Below are positions 34,632 to 40,452 of a stretch of DNA of 64,000 nt, in pieces; within the stretch, counting starts at the first letter, position 1, and every line of letters starts with the position of its first letter. The notes under the pieces were generated by a model. The model saw only the letters and a program-made list of their open reading frames with translations, was not told the DNA's origin and made no database searches. Made by a program: the position numbers and the translations under genes. This DNA is from Candidatus Altimarinota bacterium (GTDB taxonomy: Bacteria > Patescibacteriota > Gracilibacteria > UBA4473): the NCBI GenBank assembly GCA_965231215.1, contig OZ246423.1, positions 544,001 to 608,000 on the forward strand. Direction: 5' to 3'.

Positions 34632-34796
34632 TTTTCCTTTTTAAACTCTCCCCTCATCAGGGGGGGGAGAAGGGAAAGGCAAATAATATTTCTAATATGA
34701 AATGAACTTAGAAGGTTTAGAAACTCTTTATTAGGCTGGCCTTTTTTTGCCTTCTTTTTGGCCACACAAAAAATGAACAGGTATAATCAAACTGTT

Positions 34797-36089
34797 ATGA
34801 ACGAACTTTTCCAAATACTTTCCCCTGATAATCACATCTATCAGTTTTTACTGGCAGTATTGTTAGGCGCCTTTGTTGGTCTGCGACGGGAACTAGAAGC
34901 TCAGAATAAAAAAAAGGAAAGCTTCATGGGCTTCAGAACCATGTCGCTTATGTCTTCCCTCGGAGTCGTTTCTACCTTTTTCCCAGAAATGCCCTACCTC
35001 CCAGCAGTCTGTTTTGTGGGGCTCCTAATGTTTTTAGGAATTGCCTATGCCAATGGAACCTTTCGTTTGAAATTAATAGGAATGACCTCAGAAATTTCGG
35101 CTCTTTTTATGTTTTGGGTTGGAGTTTTAATAGGCTATGAACAACAAGTTTTGGCAGTTATATTAACAGTTTTTATCGGGAGTCTAAATGCGTTCAAAGA
35201 AGAACTTCACCACTTTGCCGGAACCATTAGCCCCAAGGAATGGTCCGGGGCGTTACAACTTTTAATACTCTCTGGAGCTGTCTTGCCCTTCCTCCCACAA
35301 CAGCCAGTAGATCCTTGGGGGGTGTTAGTCCCTTTCAATATATGGTTTCTGGTAATACTGATTTCGGCGATTGGGTTCTTGGGGTACTTCTCTACCAAAT
35401 ATATGGGCGTCAAAGGCGGTATTCCTTTGGTCGCTTTTTTAGGGTCTATTGTGTCCAGTACAGCCGTAACCACCTCACTGGCCGACCAGTCTAAACGATC
35501 AAAATTAACCGGCATTTTTACTGTGGGAATTTTGTTAGCCGTGGCCACTATGAATATTCGAGTAGCAGCAGAAATTATTTTTTGGGGAACTCCCGCAATG
35601 ATTCAGAGCTTGGTTTTTATCCCTTTGTTTATGTTTTTTGCGGGACTAGTTGCGGCCAGTTATTTTTTTCACGAAACCAATAAAAAACATCAATTTAGTA
35701 CCAAAACTAAAGGCATGACCTCTGAACTTCACCTCCAAAGCCCTTTTGAAATTGTGCCAGCCCTTAAATTTGGAGGGATTTTCGTTGTGGTGCTTATAGC
35801 CCTAGCCTTAGGGCAAAAATACTTGGGAGACTCTGGCGTTTATGCCGCCGCATTCTTTTCCGGATTTGTAGATGTAGATGCGATTGTGCTTTCGACTCTG
35901 GAATCCGTAAAGTTAGGAGAAATGCCACAGCCTCTAGCTGAGCGAGCCATAATTTTAGCCGTGATGGTAAATAATGCCGTAAAAATTCTGTATGTAGCTA
36001 TTTTAGGAGGACGAAAACTGGTGGCCAAAGTATCAATGGGAATTGGTTTCACTATTGCCGCTGGATTTGTAGCGGTGTTTTTGTTTTAA
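34797..36089 (+). CDS. MgtC/SapB family protein with DUF4010
   Basis: LGAFVGLRRE, GFRT, LPFLP, GSIVSSTAVT, SGFVDVDAI. Confidence 0.88.
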   Translation: MNELFQILSPDNHIYQFLLAVLLGAFVGLRRELEAQNKKKESFMGFRTMSLMSSLGVVSTFFPEMPYLPAVCFVGLLMFLGIAYANGTFRLKLIGMTSEISALFMFWVGVLIGYEQQVLAVILTVFIGSLNAFKEELHHFAGTISPKEWSGALQLLILSGAVLPFLPQQPVDPWGVLVPFNIWFLVILISAIGFLGYFSTKYMGVKGGIPLVAFLGSIVSSTAVTTSLADQSKRSKLTGIFTVGILLAVATMNIRVAAEIIFWGTPAMIQSLVFIPLFMFFAGLVAASYFFHETNKKHQFSTKTKGMTSELHLQSPFEIVPALKFGGIFVVVLIALALGQKYLGDSGVYAAAFFSGFVDVDAIVLSTLESVKLGEMPQPLAERAIILAVMVNNAVKILYVAILGGRKLVAKVSMGIGFTIAAGFVAVFLF

Positions 36090-36109
36090 ACATTTTCTGT
36101 AAAAACTTA

Positions 36110-36138
36110 TTTACAAAGTTTGGCTTCAGGCTTATATT
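36110..36138 (+). promoter_or_regulatory. Sigma70-type promoter of the ileS leader
   Basis: TTTACA (36110-36115), 17-nt spacer, TATATT (36133-36138). Confidence 0.65.
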
Positions 36139-36164
36139 CGCCATAAGTTCTTTTTTAAAATAAA

Positions 36165-36354
36165 TTCTGTTGAGCGGTTATCACCCGCAATCTTGCCAGG
36201 CAAGACAGAAGCTGGAAGAAATTAACCTTAGTTAAAACTAGAACCAGCCGGATTTTTGGAAACTTTTCCCGTCAGAAAAAAAATAAAGCAAAACGCAGAG
36301 TTGGTACCGTCCAAATTTTGGACACTCGCACGAATATTTTTATTCGTCCTTTTT
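36165..36354 (+). promoter_or_regulatory. Isoleucine T-box riboswitch, ultrashort Stem I type
   Basis: GCGG-TTATCAC-CCGC with ATC specifier at 36180-82; Stem II GCTGG-AAGAA...TAGAA-CCAGC; CCGTCA F-box; antiterminator GAGT-TGGTACC-GTCCAA-ATT-TTGGAC-ACTC (36298-36327); competing hairpin ending GTCC-TTTTT-ATG. Confidence 0.88.
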
Positions 36355-39300
36355 ATGAACCAAAAATTCTTCTCGACTCCAGATCCAAAAACTTCAGTAG
36401 ATGAAGTAGAACAAAATATTCTTGAATTTTGGAACAAAAAAAACATCTTCCAGCAATCTATAGATAGCCGCGATCCAAATAAAGAATTTGTGTTTTTTGA
36501 TGGGCCTCCGTTCGCTACTGGAACGCCTCATTACGGGCACATCTTGGCTGGAACTATCAAAGACGCCATCCCCAGGTACTGGACCATGAAAGGCTACCGC
36601 GTCCCCCGAAAGTGGGGATGGGACTGTCACGGAGTACCCGTTGAATACGGAGTAGAAAAGGAACACGGCATCAAAGGAAAACCTGAAATTGAAGAAATGG
36701 GAGTCGCTAAGTTTAATGAAATGTGTCGCGACGTGGTCCTTAGATACGCCAATGAATGGGAAGCTACCGTCGACCGAATGGGACGATTCGTAGACTTCAA
36801 AGACGATTACAAAACGATGGATCCAGAATTTATGGAATCCGTCTGGTGGGTCTTTAAATCTTTGTGGGACAAAGGGCTTATTTATGAAGGACACAAAGTT
36901 GTGGCTTACAGCCCAAAGCTTGGAAGTCCTCTTTCTAACTTTGAAGCCAATCTCAATTACCAAGACATTGATGACCCGGCTGTAACCGTAAAATTTGAAC
37001 TCATAGACGAAGTAGAGGTAAAACCAGTTCATGACAAAAAAACCTACATCCTTGCGTGGACTACAACCCCCTGGACACTGCCTAGCAACTGTGGCCTCGG
37101 GATGGGAAGAGATCATGAATATATTTTGATTGAACATGAAGGAGAATACTTTTGGATTGCTGAAGGAGCGGCCACGAGATACTTCCCAGAAGATTTTGAA
37201 GTCCTCGCACGACGCAAAGGATCAGAATTTAAAGGGCTCAGATACAGACCCCTCTTTGATTTTTTTGATGATGGCAGCGACCCCAATCGGTTTCAAGTTA
37301 TCCACGATGACGGAGATTATGTATCGCTTCAAGAAGGGACTGGGATAGTGCACTTTGCTCCATTTTTTGGAGCCGAAGACGCTGAGCTCTGTGCTAAATA
37401 CGACATTCATGGAGTAAACCCCATCAACGATGATGGATACTTTACCGAGGCCGCTCCACCGCTAGAAGGAAAATATTTCCGTGAAGATTCCGAAGTTGAA
37501 GGATCAAAAGAAAATAATGCTAATATGTGGGTGATCAACGCCCTTAAAGAATCTGGCCTTCTTTTTCGAAGAGACCAGGTGCGGCACTCTTATCCTCACT
37601 GTTGGCGAACCGATTGTGCACTGATGTATCGTGGGGTAACCACTTGGTTTGTAAAGGTAACCGACTTCAAAGATGACATGATGACCCAAAATCAAAACAT
37701 TAACTGGACTCCAGAACACATCAAAAACGGTCGTTTTGGGAAAATCCTTGAAGGAGCACCAGACTGGGCCATTTCCAGAAACCGATACTGGGGATGTCCA
37801 CTCCCTATCTGGCGATGTGACAAAACTGGAGTTATTGAAGTTATGGGATCTAAAGAAGATTTAGAAAAAAAAGCCGGAGTTTCGGTTTCAGACCTGCACC
37901 GACATTTTATTGATGACCTCACCTGGGAAAATCCCAAAACCGGGGGTACGATGAGACGAATTGAAGAGGTCTTAGATTGTTGGTTTGAGTCTGGTTCTAT
38001 GCCCTACGCCTCAATCCATTACCCATTTTGTGAAAGTGGGAAATATGAATTACAAAGTGCGAAATCCAAAGAAGAAAAAGAAAAGTGTTGGGAGTTTTTT
38101 GTGAAGATGTGGAAAGGTGAATTTGGTTTTGAAATCGATACACCAGAAAGGAAAGAAAACTTCATGGAGGTTTCTAAAACGTGGTACGTAGAAGAAGATA
38201 AAAAACTGTTGGGATCGCTTGAACTCTACTGGGAAAAAACCAATAAATGTTGGAATATTGGTCGTATTGGAGTCATTAAAGACGAACGCAGAACAGGCAT
38301 TGGAACAGCTCTCATGGAAGCAGCTGAAACGTTTTTACAACAAGAAAACCAAACAGAAACAAGCCTTAATGGAGAACAAAAAAGTGCTGGATTTTATGAA
38401 AAATTAGGGTTTGAAAAGATTTCTGAATTTGAACCAGCCGACAAAAACCCTGAAGTCTTAGCTGCCAAATTTACAAAAAAACTATCAACTATCAACCATC
38501 AACCAACCACCTTCCGAACTGCCAATTTCATTTCTGAAGGCATGGATCAGACTCGTGGATGGTTTTACACCCTTCACGTACTCGGGACGGCACTCTTTGG
38601 AAAAAATATTTTTGATAACGTTATCTGTAGTGGAATCGTTCTGGCCGAAGACGGACAAAAAATGTCTAAGTCAAAGAAAAACTACCCAGATCCAAGCCTT
38701 ATTTTTGAAAAATACGGTGCCGATTCAATGCGATTTTATCTCCTACAGTCCCCGGTAGCGACTAAAGGAGAAAGCCTTAAATTTATTGAACGTGAAGTTG
38801 AAGAAGTCCTCAAAAATACCGTACTCCCACTTAAAAATGCCTACCAATTTCTTTCTATGTACGCTGAAATTGACCGATGGTCTCCCACTAAATTTACCTG
38901 GATGAGACATGGAGAAGCCATGCACAATGTAAACCAAACCTACGCGGGAAAAGAAGAAAACTGCAAAGGACTCACAGACACCGGGAAGGCGCAAGCCGAA
39001 AGTCTAAAAGAAATAGTGACTGATTTTGATCACTTAGTAGCTTCGCCCCTTCCAAGAGCTCAAGAAACAGCCACTATTGTAGGGGAGAAATTTGAAACCG
39101 ACGACCGACTCAGAGAAATCAATTTTGGAAATCTTGAAGGTACCCCGTGGAAACCTATTCCAGAAAGACTAGCCAACGACACTACCGAAAACCTAGACGA
39201 GACTCAAACCCGAGCCGAATCTATCATGCACGATTTGAATAAAAGCCATTATGGACAACACATTGGTTTAGTCACTCATGCAGCCCTGATTAGATGTGCC

Positions 39301-40452
39301 CAAACAGGACACCTTTTTGGACACAAAACCAAAGAAGAGCACCTTCCATTTCCACAAATCAGAACCGGAATGTCTCAAATTGTTTTCCCCTTACCACAAA
39401 CCGAAAACGAGCTCGATAAGTGGATTCTTTCTGAAACCCAAACTCTCATCAAAGCCTATACCAAGGCCTTTGATGCCTACGACACAGAAAAAACCTGTCA
39501 CCTACTGCCCCCATTTATTGATAAACTCAATAACTGGTACCTCCGTCAGTCACGAGAACGGTTCTGGGGTGAGGGCCTGAGTGAAGACAAGCGTGGTGCG
39601 TATGAAACCCTCCATTACGTACTTTTAAATGTAAGTAAATTGATGGCCCCAATTATGCCATTCTTTGCCGATCACCTGTACCGAAACCTCACAAACGAAC
39701 CAAACAGATCTGTACACTTAGAATTCCTACCGCTGGCCAATGATCAATTGGTAGACAAAGATTTAGAAAAAAGAATCGATACTGCCAGGGAAATCGTAAA
39801 GTTATCTGCCGCTATCAGAGCCCGAAGCAAAATCAAACTTAGACAACCGCTAGGAAAACTACAATTTGCACTGAGCGAAGAGATCCAAGTAGACCCCTCT
39901 ATCATAGCTCGGGAAGCGAATGTAAAAGAAGTAGAAGTCCTCAAATCCACTGAAGGTGTCGCCGAAAAAATCATTAAAGTAGACGCCCGAAAAGTAGGCC
40001 CAAAGTTTGGTAAAAAAGTGCAAGAACTCATCCAAGCGGGTAAATCTGGAGACTTTGAAATACTCGAAAACGGAAAAGTTCAAGTCGCCGGAGAGATACT
40101 AGAAGCCGACGAATACGAAACCGCATTCATGTGTGAAGAAGGCTTAGAGGCCGATAGCACCCCCCAAGTAGTCGTCCTCCTCAATACTGAAATTACGCCT
40201 GAACTTGAACTCGAAGGACTAAGCCGGGAGTTTATCCGCGCTATCCAAGAACTTCGAAAATCCTCTGGATTTGAAGTCTCTGACCGAATTGAAATCACCT
40301 ATCAAACCTCCTCTGAAAAGCTACAAAAAATGATCAATAAATTCGCTGATCACATCGCTGGCGAAGTTCTCGCCAACAGTATTTCTGAAGGCCGTGGTGA
40401 TCAAGAGTATAACTTTGATGGAGCCCTTATTTCTATCTCTATTTTTAGATAA
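36355..40452 (+). CDS. ileS: Isoleucine--tRNA ligase (type 2) with in-frame GNAT and histidine-phosphatase insertions
   Basis: DGPPFATGTPHYGH, GWDCHG, WTTTPWT, DQTRGWFY, KMSKS; GNAT at about 38029-38511; RHG phosphatase at about 38887-39396; true start MNQKF. Confidence 0.96.
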   Translation: MNQKFFSTPDPKTSVDEVEQNILEFWNKKNIFQQSIDSRDPNKEFVFFDGPPFATGTPHYGHILAGTIKDAIPRYWTMKGYRVPRKWGWDCHGVPVEYGVEKEHGIKGKPEIEEMGVAKFNEMCRDVVLRYANEWEATVDRMGRFVDFKDDYKTMDPEFMESVWWVFKSLWDKGLIYEGHKVVAYSPKLGSPLSNFEANLNYQDIDDPAVTVKFELIDEVEVKPVHDKKTYILAWTTTPWTLPSNCGLGMGRDHEYILIEHEGEYFWIAEGAATRYFPEDFEVLARRKGSEFKGLRYRPLFDFFDDGSDPNRFQVIHDDGDYVSLQEGTGIVHFAPFFGAEDAELCAKYDIHGVNPINDDGYFTEAAPPLEGKYFREDSEVEGSKENNANMWVINALKESGLLFRRDQVRHSYPHCWRTDCALMYRGVTTWFVKVTDFKDDMMTQNQNINWTPEHIKNGRFGKILEGAPDWAISRNRYWGCPLPIWRCDKTGVIEVMGSKEDLEKKAGVSVSDLHRHFIDDLTWENPKTGGTMRRIEEVLDCWFESGSMPYASIHYPFCESGKYELQSAKSKEEKEKCWEFFVKMWKGEFGFEIDTPERKENFMEVSKTWYVEEDKKLLGSLELYWEKTNKCWNIGRIGVIKDERRTGIGTALMEAAETFLQQENQTETSLNGEQKSAGFYEKLGFEKISEFEPADKNPEVLAAKFTKKLSTINHQPTTFRTANFISEGMDQTRGWFYTLHVLGTALFGKNIFDNVICSGIVLAEDGQKMSKSKKNYPDPSLIFEKYGADSMRFYLLQSPVATKGESLKFIEREVEEVLKNTVLPLKNAYQFLSMYAEIDRWSPTKFTWMRHGEAMHNVNQTYAGKEENCKGLTDTGKAQAESLKEIVTDFDHLVASPLPRAQETATIVGEKFETDDRLREINFGNLEGTPWKPIPERLANDTTENLDETQTRAESIMHDLNKSHYGQHIGLVTHAALIRCAQTGHLFGHKTKEEHLPFPQIRTGMSQIVFPLPQTENELDKWILSETQTLIKAYTKAFDAYDTEKTCHLLPPFIDKLNNWYLRQSRERFWGEGLSEDKRGAYETLHYVLLNVSKLMAPIMPFFADHLYRNLTNEPNRSVHLEFLPLANDQLVDKDLEKRIDTAREIVKLSAAIRARSKIKLRQPLGKLQFALSEEIQVDPSIIAREANVKEVEVLKSTEGVAEKIIKVDARKVGPKFGKKVQELIQAGKSGDFEILENGKVQVAGEILEADEYETAFMCEEGLEADSTPQVVVLLNTEITPELELEGLSREFIRAIQELRKSSGFEVSDRIEITYQTSSEKLQKMINKFADHIAGEVLANSISEGRGDQEYNFDGALISISIFR
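38481..38510 (+). repeat. Degenerate heptamer tandem repeat at the 3' edge of the GNAT insert
   Basis: A-CTATCAA-CTATCAA-CCATCAA-CCAACCA-C. Confidence 0.6.

Follow-up and report, generated by a model that had tools for sequence, protein, structure and literature searches.

An ileS T-box leader in a candidate phyla radiation bacterium with an extra Stem I hairpin, no Stem III and a putative attenuator

T-box leaders are the model for an RNA that reads another RNA, and the current rules for them come from Firmicutes and Actinobacteria. PMC2916919 lists Firmicutes, Actinobacteria, Chloroflexi, Deinococcus-Thermus and delta-proteobacteria as the phyla with known T-boxes. The closest described systems are the actinobacterial T-boxes of ileS, the isoleucyl-tRNA synthetase (IleRS) gene, which have an ultrashort Stem I and are represented by the structures from Mycobacterium tuberculosis (PDB 6UFG) and Nocardia farcinica (PDB 6UFM) (PMC7583486, PMC11297988). 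According to PMC7583486, the T-boxes with an ultrashort Stem I known to date act on translation, and a slow capture of the tRNA in the absence of an elbow platform fits a non-kinetic switch. The rules given there are that Stem III is indispensable, that transcriptional switches generally require an elbow platform, and that the terminator is formed from the 3' strands of the antiterminator. The class II model of TBDB was run on Actinobacteria reference genomes and on truncated-Stem-I class I hits (PMC7778990). In a full-text search of open-access papers, we found no described T-box from the candidate phyla radiation (CPR), Patescibacteria, Saccharibacteria or Gracilibacteria; the TBDB supplementary tables may list such entries. 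Here we analysed a leader upstream of ileS in a 64-kb stretch of DNA (hereafter the window), which covers 544001-608000 of a 1.33-Mb genome in one contig. The leader element lies at 36147-36354 on the + strand of the window, between an MgtC/DUF4010 gene and ileS. We are highly confident that it is a genuine, conserved, Ile-specific T-box leader. That it is a tRNA-Ile(GAU)-specific T-box controlling ileS, with output by attenuation, was judged fairly probable.

Conservation and identity of the ileS leader

The ileS 5' regions of 29 relatives were compared. The motif TGG[ACGT]ACC was located 50-110 nt 5' of ileS in 20 of the 30 loci, the window's own counted. RNAalifold was run unguided on 16 leaders and gave 30 pairs, 28 of which carried compensatory double changes. 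The architecture was the same as that read earlier from the window in a first-pass annotation. Two covariance models were then compared with genomic DNA. R1 was built from a plain MAFFT alignment of 16 leaders with the RNAalifold structure, and R2 from 16 leaders of other genera, with no same-genus sequence and with RNAalifold's own structure. R2 matched the window once, at 36160-36360, with 140.1 bits (E 7e-35), and the runner-up reached 14.6 bits. When 43 distinct leaders were aligned to the model, 94.8% of cells were paired and 32/33 pairs had changed on both sides. None of 500 shuffles of these 43 leaders reached any of five measures. The covariation score was 0.82, compared to 0.07-0.16 with the 3' partners slid by 1-3 columns. 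Since the 43-leader alignment was fitted to the model, more weight was given to the 16-leader RNAalifold result and to the leave-genus-out control. The minimum free energy (MFE) fold from RNAfold returned the helices listed below, with a modest whole-leader z-score of -1.9. Conservation of the specifier and the bulge in relatives had been set as a test in the first-pass annotation, and it was observed for both ATC (42/43) and TGGTACC (39/43).

The leader contains the following features.

36147-36153, + strand: 5'-proximal motif GTTCTTT, probably the first transcribed bases; conserved in the family.
36165-36210, + strand: Stem I, a three-way junction of a base helix (TTCTG 36165-69/CAGAA 36206-10), the specifier hairpin and the extra hairpin P1b; all three helices covary.
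36174-36188, + strand: specifier hairpin, GCGG 36174-77, loop TTATCAC 36178-84 (ATC 36180-82, then A) and CCGC 36185-88; conserved and covarying.
36191-36205, + strand: extra hairpin P1b, TCTTGC-CAG-GCAAGA, on the non-bulged strand of the K-turn position; compensatory changes in 4/4 pairs, 86% paired.
36211-36248, + strand: Stem II, GCTGG 36211-15/CCAGC 36244-48 with distal hairpin TTAAC-CTTA-GTTAA; covarying.
36216-21 and 36236-43, + strand: predicted S-turn strands, AAGAAA and AACTAGAA, respectively; from strand conservation.
36249-36279, + strand: Stem IIA/B pseudoknot, with IIA CGG/CCG, F-box CCGTCA 36269-74 and IIB TTTTC 36264-68/GAAAA 36275-79.
36280-36297, + strand: purine-rich linker with RAG (AAG 36286-88); no hairpin and no Stem III.
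36295-36329, + strand: antiterminator, with helix A1 GAGT 36298-301/ACTC 36324-27 (plus GC/GC with a bulged A); from RNAfold and covariation.
36302-08, + strand: T-box bulge TGGTACC, 7 nt, between the covarying A1 and A2.
36309-23, + strand: helix A2, GTCCAA/TTGGAC; from RNAfold and covariation.
36330-36354, + strand: weak terminator-like hairpin, ACGAATA 36330-36/TTTT/TATTCGT 36341-47, then CC and U5 36350-54.

The first-pass annotation had also named the lack of a covariance-model match as refuting. On its own, the result with the Rfam T-box model (RF00230) would be such a lack, as it gave no match in the window at its gathering score of 93 bits. R2, built from other genera, matched strongly as described above. 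The Rfam miss was considered uninformative because RF00230 gave other short-Stem-I ileS leaders only 32-59 bits, which is below 93. All 20 ileS leaders of other lineages fell below the gathering score. At E<=1, 8 of 13 tested leaders gave significant sub-threshold matches. These were the Bdellovibrionales leaders L081 (59.4 bits) and L104 (57.6 bits), the Acidimicrobiia leaders L092, L074 and L075 (43-54 bits), L103, L088 and the Patescibacteria-group record L080 (31.9 bits). The other five, including the same-genus leader L040, gave no RF00230 match at E<=1. In the RF00230 alignments of the three best matches (L081, L104 and L092), 72-76 model positions of the distal Stem I were lacking. R1 provided a link to the known family, since L104 (49 bits), L081 (33.8 bits) and L080 (77.2 bits) were matched by both models.

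Modules of the leader and the tRNA-Ile ligand

The modules that the first-pass annotation had read were all found in place. These were, upstream of ileS, a very short Stem I with ATC in its terminal loop, an extra hairpin at the K-turn position, opposed AAGAA/TAGAA strands in Stem II followed by the F-box CCGTCA, a Stem III reduced to an A-rich linker, and an antiterminator with a TGGTACC bulge whose UGGU would pair with the ACCA end of tRNA-Ile.

Stem I was only 46 nt long, and the specifier was in its terminal loop. The long Stem I with a distal AG bulge and loop, which forms the double T-loop elbow platform, was absent from the window leader. A perfect 4-bp stem with an NNATCNN loop was found in 19 of the 20 leaders bearing TGG[ACGT]ACC, 97-218 nt 5' of the bulge motif. 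ATC was within the loop in 42 of the 43 aligned leaders. The 43rd row (L072) was mis-aligned, and a pattern scan showed that its own hairpin, TCAT-GCATCAC-ATGA, carries ATC. ATC was followed by A in most rows (35), and otherwise by C (5) or T (2). The specifier stem was 98.2% paired across the 43 leaders, with compensatory changes in 4/4 pairs.

P1b was present in 36 of the 43 aligned leaders and covaried in all four of its pairs. It was missing from seven leaders, including the Bdellovibrionales leaders L081 and L104, which show a plain K-turn-like GA motif instead. On its 5' side the specifier stem was flanked by GA in 23/43 leaders, and 3' of it GA or AA was present in 27/43, as in a K-turn. 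In the window, GA was present 5' and AA 3' of the specifier stem, and the covarying P1b interrupted the non-bulged strand. The order of the window Stem I is CUG-UU-GA-[specifier stem]-AA-[P1b]-CAG. A K-turn elaborated into a three-way junction is known as a k-junction in thiamine pyrophosphate (TPP) riboswitches (PMC4005666, PMC10573300). From its sequence, we infer that the K-turn of Stem I has been elaborated into a three-way, k-junction-like fold.

In the case of Stem II, the base helix was 100% paired and the distal helix 95%, and both covaried across the 43 leaders. The 5' S-turn strand was AAGAAA or AAGAAC in 39/43 rows, and the 3' strand ended in TAGAA, TAGAC or TAGAT in 42/43. Helix IIA was 100% paired in the same leaders. 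Helix IIB was in register with >=4 bp in half of 40 leaders (20/40), with eight different helix sequences. The mean IIB pairing was 2.6, compared to 0.87 in a cross-pairing control, and RNAalifold selected IIB unprompted in a second alignment. The F-box is worded CCGUCA in PMC7583486. In two leaders, L007 and L029, the IIA/B pseudoknot and the F-box were lacking and the specifier hairpin, Stem II and antiterminator were kept.

The region between the pseudoknot and the antiterminator was reduced in the window. PMC7583486, following the discriminator of Li et al. 2019, describes Stem III as flanked by a purine string, 5'-RRRxG-Stem III-AA-3'. Only 8 nt (CAAAACGC) separated AAG 36286-88 from A1 in the window, with no hairpin and with the purines kept. 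The purine string RAG...AAAA was retained despite the absence of Stem III. RAG was found in the linker of 43/43 rows. By manual reading, which left out the mis-parsed rows L077 and L081, 21 of the 43 leaders, including the window and its genus, had only 7-11 nt between RAG and A1 and no hairpin. About half of the related leaders have a Stem III.

A1 was 95% paired and A2 93% across the 43 leaders, and compensatory changes were found in 9 of 10 pairs. The bulge was TGGTACC in 39 rows. In the window, A2 is closed at its base by a G-C pair, as in 29/43 rows, and 5/43 have G-U there; a conserved G-U at this position is described as a steric sensor in PMC7583486. The genome contains 35 tRNA genes, with a single tRNA-Ile(GAU) gene that has A73 and an encoded CCA. 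This gene lies at 525777-525853 of the contig, on the complementary strand. The acceptor end of its tRNA is GCCC-A-CCA. Its ACCA is complementary to the UGGU of the bulge, and its GAU anticodon to AUC. The C in the third position of AUC fits the 'C rule' explained in PMC7583486. The bulge was UGGCACC in L003 and L035, which would give a C.A mismatch at the fourth pair in the case of L003. We considered covariation of the bulge with the discriminator base and rejected it, since the UGGC of L003 still meets A73, i.e. a mismatch.

A further motif was located at the 5' end. Most leaders of the window's family had G(T/C/A)TCTT 15-22 nt 5' of Stem I, and it was missing from the Magasanikbacteria- and Bdellovibrionales-type leaders. 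It was not enriched upstream of genes genome-wide (0.19 vs 0.30 per kb). RNAalifold gave no pairing partner for GTTCTTT in 19 aligned family leaders. A local hairpin, or pairing of the motif to the 5' arm of the terminator, was inconsistent across the family by eye and was rejected. The UCUU of the motif is complementary to the AAGA of the invariant S-turn strand. However, its second position varies (T/C/A) and the S-turn strand is unchanged, so there was no covariation between them.

Expression platform and rival explanations

The output of the leader was examined at the hairpin between A1 and ileS, where U5 36350-54 stands directly 5' of ATG 36355. In the family, A1 is followed by a hairpin with a U-run of 4-8 nt. 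By manual reading, the start codon stood between 0 and about 60 nt beyond the U-run, and the hairpin and U-run were kept throughout. They were also kept at six loci where another ORF (open reading frame) precedes ileS. The first-pass annotation had remarked that ileS has no Shine-Dalgarno (SD) sequence. None was found between 36330 and 36355, so this part stood; it is, however, a trait of the whole genome and not a peculiarity of the leader. SD 4-mers occurred at -20 to -4 before only 25 of 759 long ORFs (3.3%), compared to 9.5% of random 17-mers, and G was depleted to 9-13% upstream of the starts of these ORFs. The genome is without SD usage. This meant that an SD trap is impossible, and the leader has no sequestrator and antisequestrator of an SD. 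Since the hairpin and U-run were kept at any distance from the start and before unrelated ORFs, and SD usage is absent, transcription attenuation was favoured. With moderate confidence, this analysis suggested that the output is transcription attenuation dependent on tRNA-Ile.

Attenuation would proceed as follows. By analogy with the structures in PMC7583486, AUC in the 7-nt terminal loop of the 4-bp hairpin would pair with the GAU anticodon, and the bulge UGGU would pair with the free ACCA of uncharged tRNA-Ile, by which helix A1 would be stabilised. The weak hairpin and U-run right after A1 would act as an intrinsic terminator, and A1 stabilised by the tRNA would block its completion. Since the antiterminator and terminator share only 0-3 nt, the competition would act either on the terminator's closing pairs by the U-run or sterically. 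In the first version, G36328 may be shared by the GC/GC extension of A1 (36295-96/36328-29) and by a G-C pair with C36349 that would extend the stem to the U-run. In the steric version, a rigid stack of tRNA and A1 would be joined to the hairpin's 5' arm with zero spacer and may keep the hairpin from folding in the RNA exit channel.

Several results weighed against this reading of the leader as a tRNA-Ile-dependent attenuator. The hairpin 36330-47 alone had -6.0 kcal/mol and the antiterminator alone -10.3 kcal/mol, and neither excludes the other in the window, since the MFE fold (-16.3 kcal/mol) contains both. Of 22 family loci in which a hairpin could be called, 18 likewise had A1 and the hairpin side by side in the MFE. 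Among 28 rows of relatives, the overlap between the hairpin and the 3' strand of A1 was 0 nt in 11, 1 in 5, 2 in 6 and 3 in 1. The overlap was thus 0-3 nt in 23 of the 28 rows, and in the window the 5' strand of the terminator was not built from the 3' strands of A1 and A2. The remaining five rows were L023 with 5 nt of overlap, L012 and L016 with no credible hairpin, and L020 and L022 with none called. The family hairpins were weak (-2 to -7.6 kcal/mol), and the window hairpin was below the stringency of a simple terminator scan and was not listed there. In PMC7583486, the long Stem I platform is given as a general need of transcriptional T-boxes and Stem III as indispensable to the capture of the tRNA 3' end, and the window leader is without both. 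The same-genus leader L003 (genome G004) has a UGGC bulge, though the tRNA-Ile(GAU) of G004 has A73. Finally, RF00230 gave no match at E<=10 on 36050-36420, and over the whole genome it peaked at 10.6 bits, elsewhere. A textbook arrangement was found in L104, L081, L113 and L023, in which the overlap was 5-8 nt and the terminator replaced A1 in the MFE.

The first-pass annotation had placed the switch in another helix, which pairs GGAC 36320-23 with GTCC 36346-49. Such a helix is possible on paper, but folding did not favour it. It has -5.7 kcal/mol and costs the antiterminator (-10.3), compared to -16.3 kcal/mol for the combined fold. It was not conserved either, because the hairpin before the U-run in relatives does not use the 3' strand of A2. 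It was therefore rejected.

The low overlap between the two helices could also be expected if the same sensor had a translational output. Here the tRNA-dependent fold of the discriminator would set access around the SD-less AUG 36355, and the hairpin and U-run would lie in the 30S footprint. In favour of this output, no gap or almost none separates the U-run from the ATG in the window and its genus, and with SD-less initiation it could be mainly local structure that decides. Base pairing does not set terminator and antiterminator against each other, and the ultrashort-Stem-I T-boxes described in PMC7583486 are translational. However, a U-run whose spacing from the start codon varies in the family between 0 and about 60 nt (manual reading) and the same hairpin and U-run before unrelated first ORFs at six loci do not suit such an output. 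The hairpin does not include the AUG, RNAalifold found no conserved alternative pairing over the start codon, and no helix opened by tRNA binding was identified. We regard a translational output as rather unlikely, yet as a serious rival. The coexistence of antiterminator and hairpin in the MFE would also agree with a constitutive partial attenuator formed by the hairpin and U-run, with the T-box acting otherwise, through stability or processing or through pairing of GYUCUU with the AAGAA S-turn strand. The family-specific G(Y/A)TCTT is complementary to the S-turn strand (UCUU/AAGA) and is not a general promoter feature, which would favour such pairing. In contrast, the second position of the motif varied against a constant S-turn strand, which meant no covariation, and RNAalifold gave the motif no partner. 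We know of no precedent for a T-box output of this kind, be it by stability or processing or by pairing of a 5' motif, and a constitutive attenuator seemed less likely still.

If the leader were a decaying relic or a chance assembly of motifs, without function, one would expect the lack of an Rfam match and the loss of Stem III, distal Stem I and a competing terminator, all of which were observed. Such a leader, however, would hardly show compensatory changes in 32/33 pairs across 43 leaders of many genera, near-invariant AUC, UGGUACC, AAGAA and RAG, retained placement by ileS, or a leave-genus-out match at E 7e-35. This explanation was considered very improbable. Attenuation dependent on tRNA-Ile was thus kept as the preferred reading. 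A bolder proposal goes beyond it, namely that the leader belongs to a T-box subclass common in one family of the Gracilibacteria class. This subclass would have a minimal discriminator without Stem III, a k-junction in place of the K-turn and a terminator switched without strand exchange. With no spacer between it and A1, the terminator hairpin would be blocked only by the locked coaxial stack of tRNA and A1, through steric or closing-pair competition, and the GYUCUU motif would add a further layer. We offer this proposal tentatively and consider it rather doubtful as a whole.

Locus, distribution and comparison with known systems

The following features flank the leader.

36110-36138, + strand: sigma-70-like promoter TTTACA-17-TATATT (TTTACA 36110-15, TATATT 36133-38), with 10/12 consensus matches.
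36355-40452, + strand: ileS of the HYGH/KMSKS type, 1365 aa, the predicted regulated gene (Pfam tRNA-synt_1 at E 1.3e-136, Anticodon_1 and DUF5915).

A spacer of 265 nt separates the MgtC/DUF4010 gene (34758-36089) from ileS. The promoter, which the first-pass annotation had placed at the same positions, was the sole promoter-like site on the + strand within 35900-36500 in a motif scan. In 19 aligned family leaders, a -10-like hexamer was read manually 6-7 nt 5' of the G(Y/A)TCTT motif. A terminator-like hairpin and T-run was observed at 36056-36077, overlapping the final codons of the upstream gene. It is thus likely that the ileS leader is transcribed from a promoter of its own, and such intrinsic terminators seem to be in use in the genome. 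The program-called ORF of ileS begins at TTG 36256, 99 nt 5' of ATG 36355. The earlier remark that this start is too early was borne out, because alignments with the relatives' IleRS begin at residues 1-6 of the product that starts at ATG 36355, and this ATG was taken as the start. The assignment of the host to the CPR was also supported. The nearest public records were from Candidatus Gracilibacteria, Peribacteria, Peregrinibacteria, the Patescibacteria group and bacterium DOLZORAL124_38_8.

Pfam placed two additional domains in IleRS. A GNAT acetyltransferase domain (aa 600-690; window about 38080-38425) sits within the catalytic domain, and a His_Phos_1 domain (aa 850-985; window about 38900-39310) lies between the catalytic and anticodon-binding domains. 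The open frames of ileS in relatives span about 1040 to 1800 aa, so insertions in IleRS seem to be common and variable in the lineage. In-frame TGA codons were observed in the ileS frames of G057 (eight) and G060 (one), genomes of the same class, and none was found in the ileS of the window. These TGA codons would fit the TGA-recoding lineages of the same class.

The element was associated with ileS in 26 of the 30 loci. R1 found it in 25 of the 29 relatives' loci and gave no match in L006, L027, L028 and L031. At L004, L008, L020, L021, L023 and L030, the T-box was 450-900 nt 5' of ileS, and a different ORF of 100-170 aa stood between them in each. By eye, we take the ORF of L008 to resemble an RpiB/LacAB-type sugar-phosphate isomerase and that of L004 a membrane protein. 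R1 also matched leaders of Candidatus Magasanikbacteria, Peregrinibacteria and other Patescibacteria, as well as two Bdellovibrionales T-boxes. Matches were found in 37/61 related genomes, with 28/36 in the window's family, and in 35 of 151 genomes sampled evenly over Patescibacteria. The latter number is a lower bound because stricter filters were used. The element is single-copy in its own genome, and 4 of the 35 matched Patescibacteria genomes had two or three model matches. Manual reading showed GTC in place of ATC in L122, L125, L126, L129, L133, L136, L137, L141 and L142. Judged from this specifier, these leaders are probably Val-specific T-boxes.

These results indicated that tRNA-sensing leaders are widespread in CPR bacteria and that all of them are unmarked at the Rfam gathering score of 93 bits. 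Purifying selection has clearly preserved the sensing core in the window leader and its relatives, although they break each of the current rules in nature. Such leaders are ready-made minimal constructs for testing what a T-box requires. New here are the extra hairpin, which covaries and is read as a k-junction, the near-zero overlap measured between terminator and antiterminator, the SD-free context and the 5' motif of the family.

Compared with the k-junction, the likeness is at the sequence level only. As in a k-junction, the extra helix would emerge from the non-bulged strand, where it would separate the tandem G.A-type pairs from the C helix. However, the 2n position in the window is A and not G, and the bulge may be 2 and not 3 nt. 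The Bdellovibrionales leaders L081 and L104 and the leaders L113 and L023 share with the window the order of modules, the terminal-loop AUC, AAGAAA, UGGUACC and the match to R1. Unlike the window, they have a plain K-turn-like GA motif and an overlapping terminator (5-8 nt), and L104 has Stem III.

In comparison with the canonical RF00230 leaders, such as glyQS and tyrS of Bacillus subtilis in PMC7583486, sensing through specifier-anticodon and bulge-NCCA pairing and the order A1-bulge-A2 are alike. A hairpin and U-run precede an aminoacyl-tRNA synthetase gene in both. In contrast, the window leader is without the long Stem I, the specifier internal loop, the double T-loop platform and Stem III, and in its family, with an overlap of 0-3 nt, the 3' strands of A1 and A2 do not supply the 5' arm of the terminator.

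The actinobacterial ileS class differs from the window leader in its host, which in the window is a CPR bacterium, and in the SD sequestrator, the place of which is taken by a hairpin and U-run. The window leader also has a third hairpin at the K-turn, no Stem III and a G-C pair at the base of A2. The Acidimicrobiia ileS leaders score 43-54 bits in Rfam, whereas the window has no Rfam score. Nevertheless, the window leader is like this class in that it would regulate ileS and has a very short Stem I, with no elbow platform, whose terminal loop displays AUC followed by a purine. It likewise shares a Stem II with predicted S-turn strands, the IIA/B pseudoknot, the F-box CCGUCA, RAG and UGGUACC between A1 and A2.

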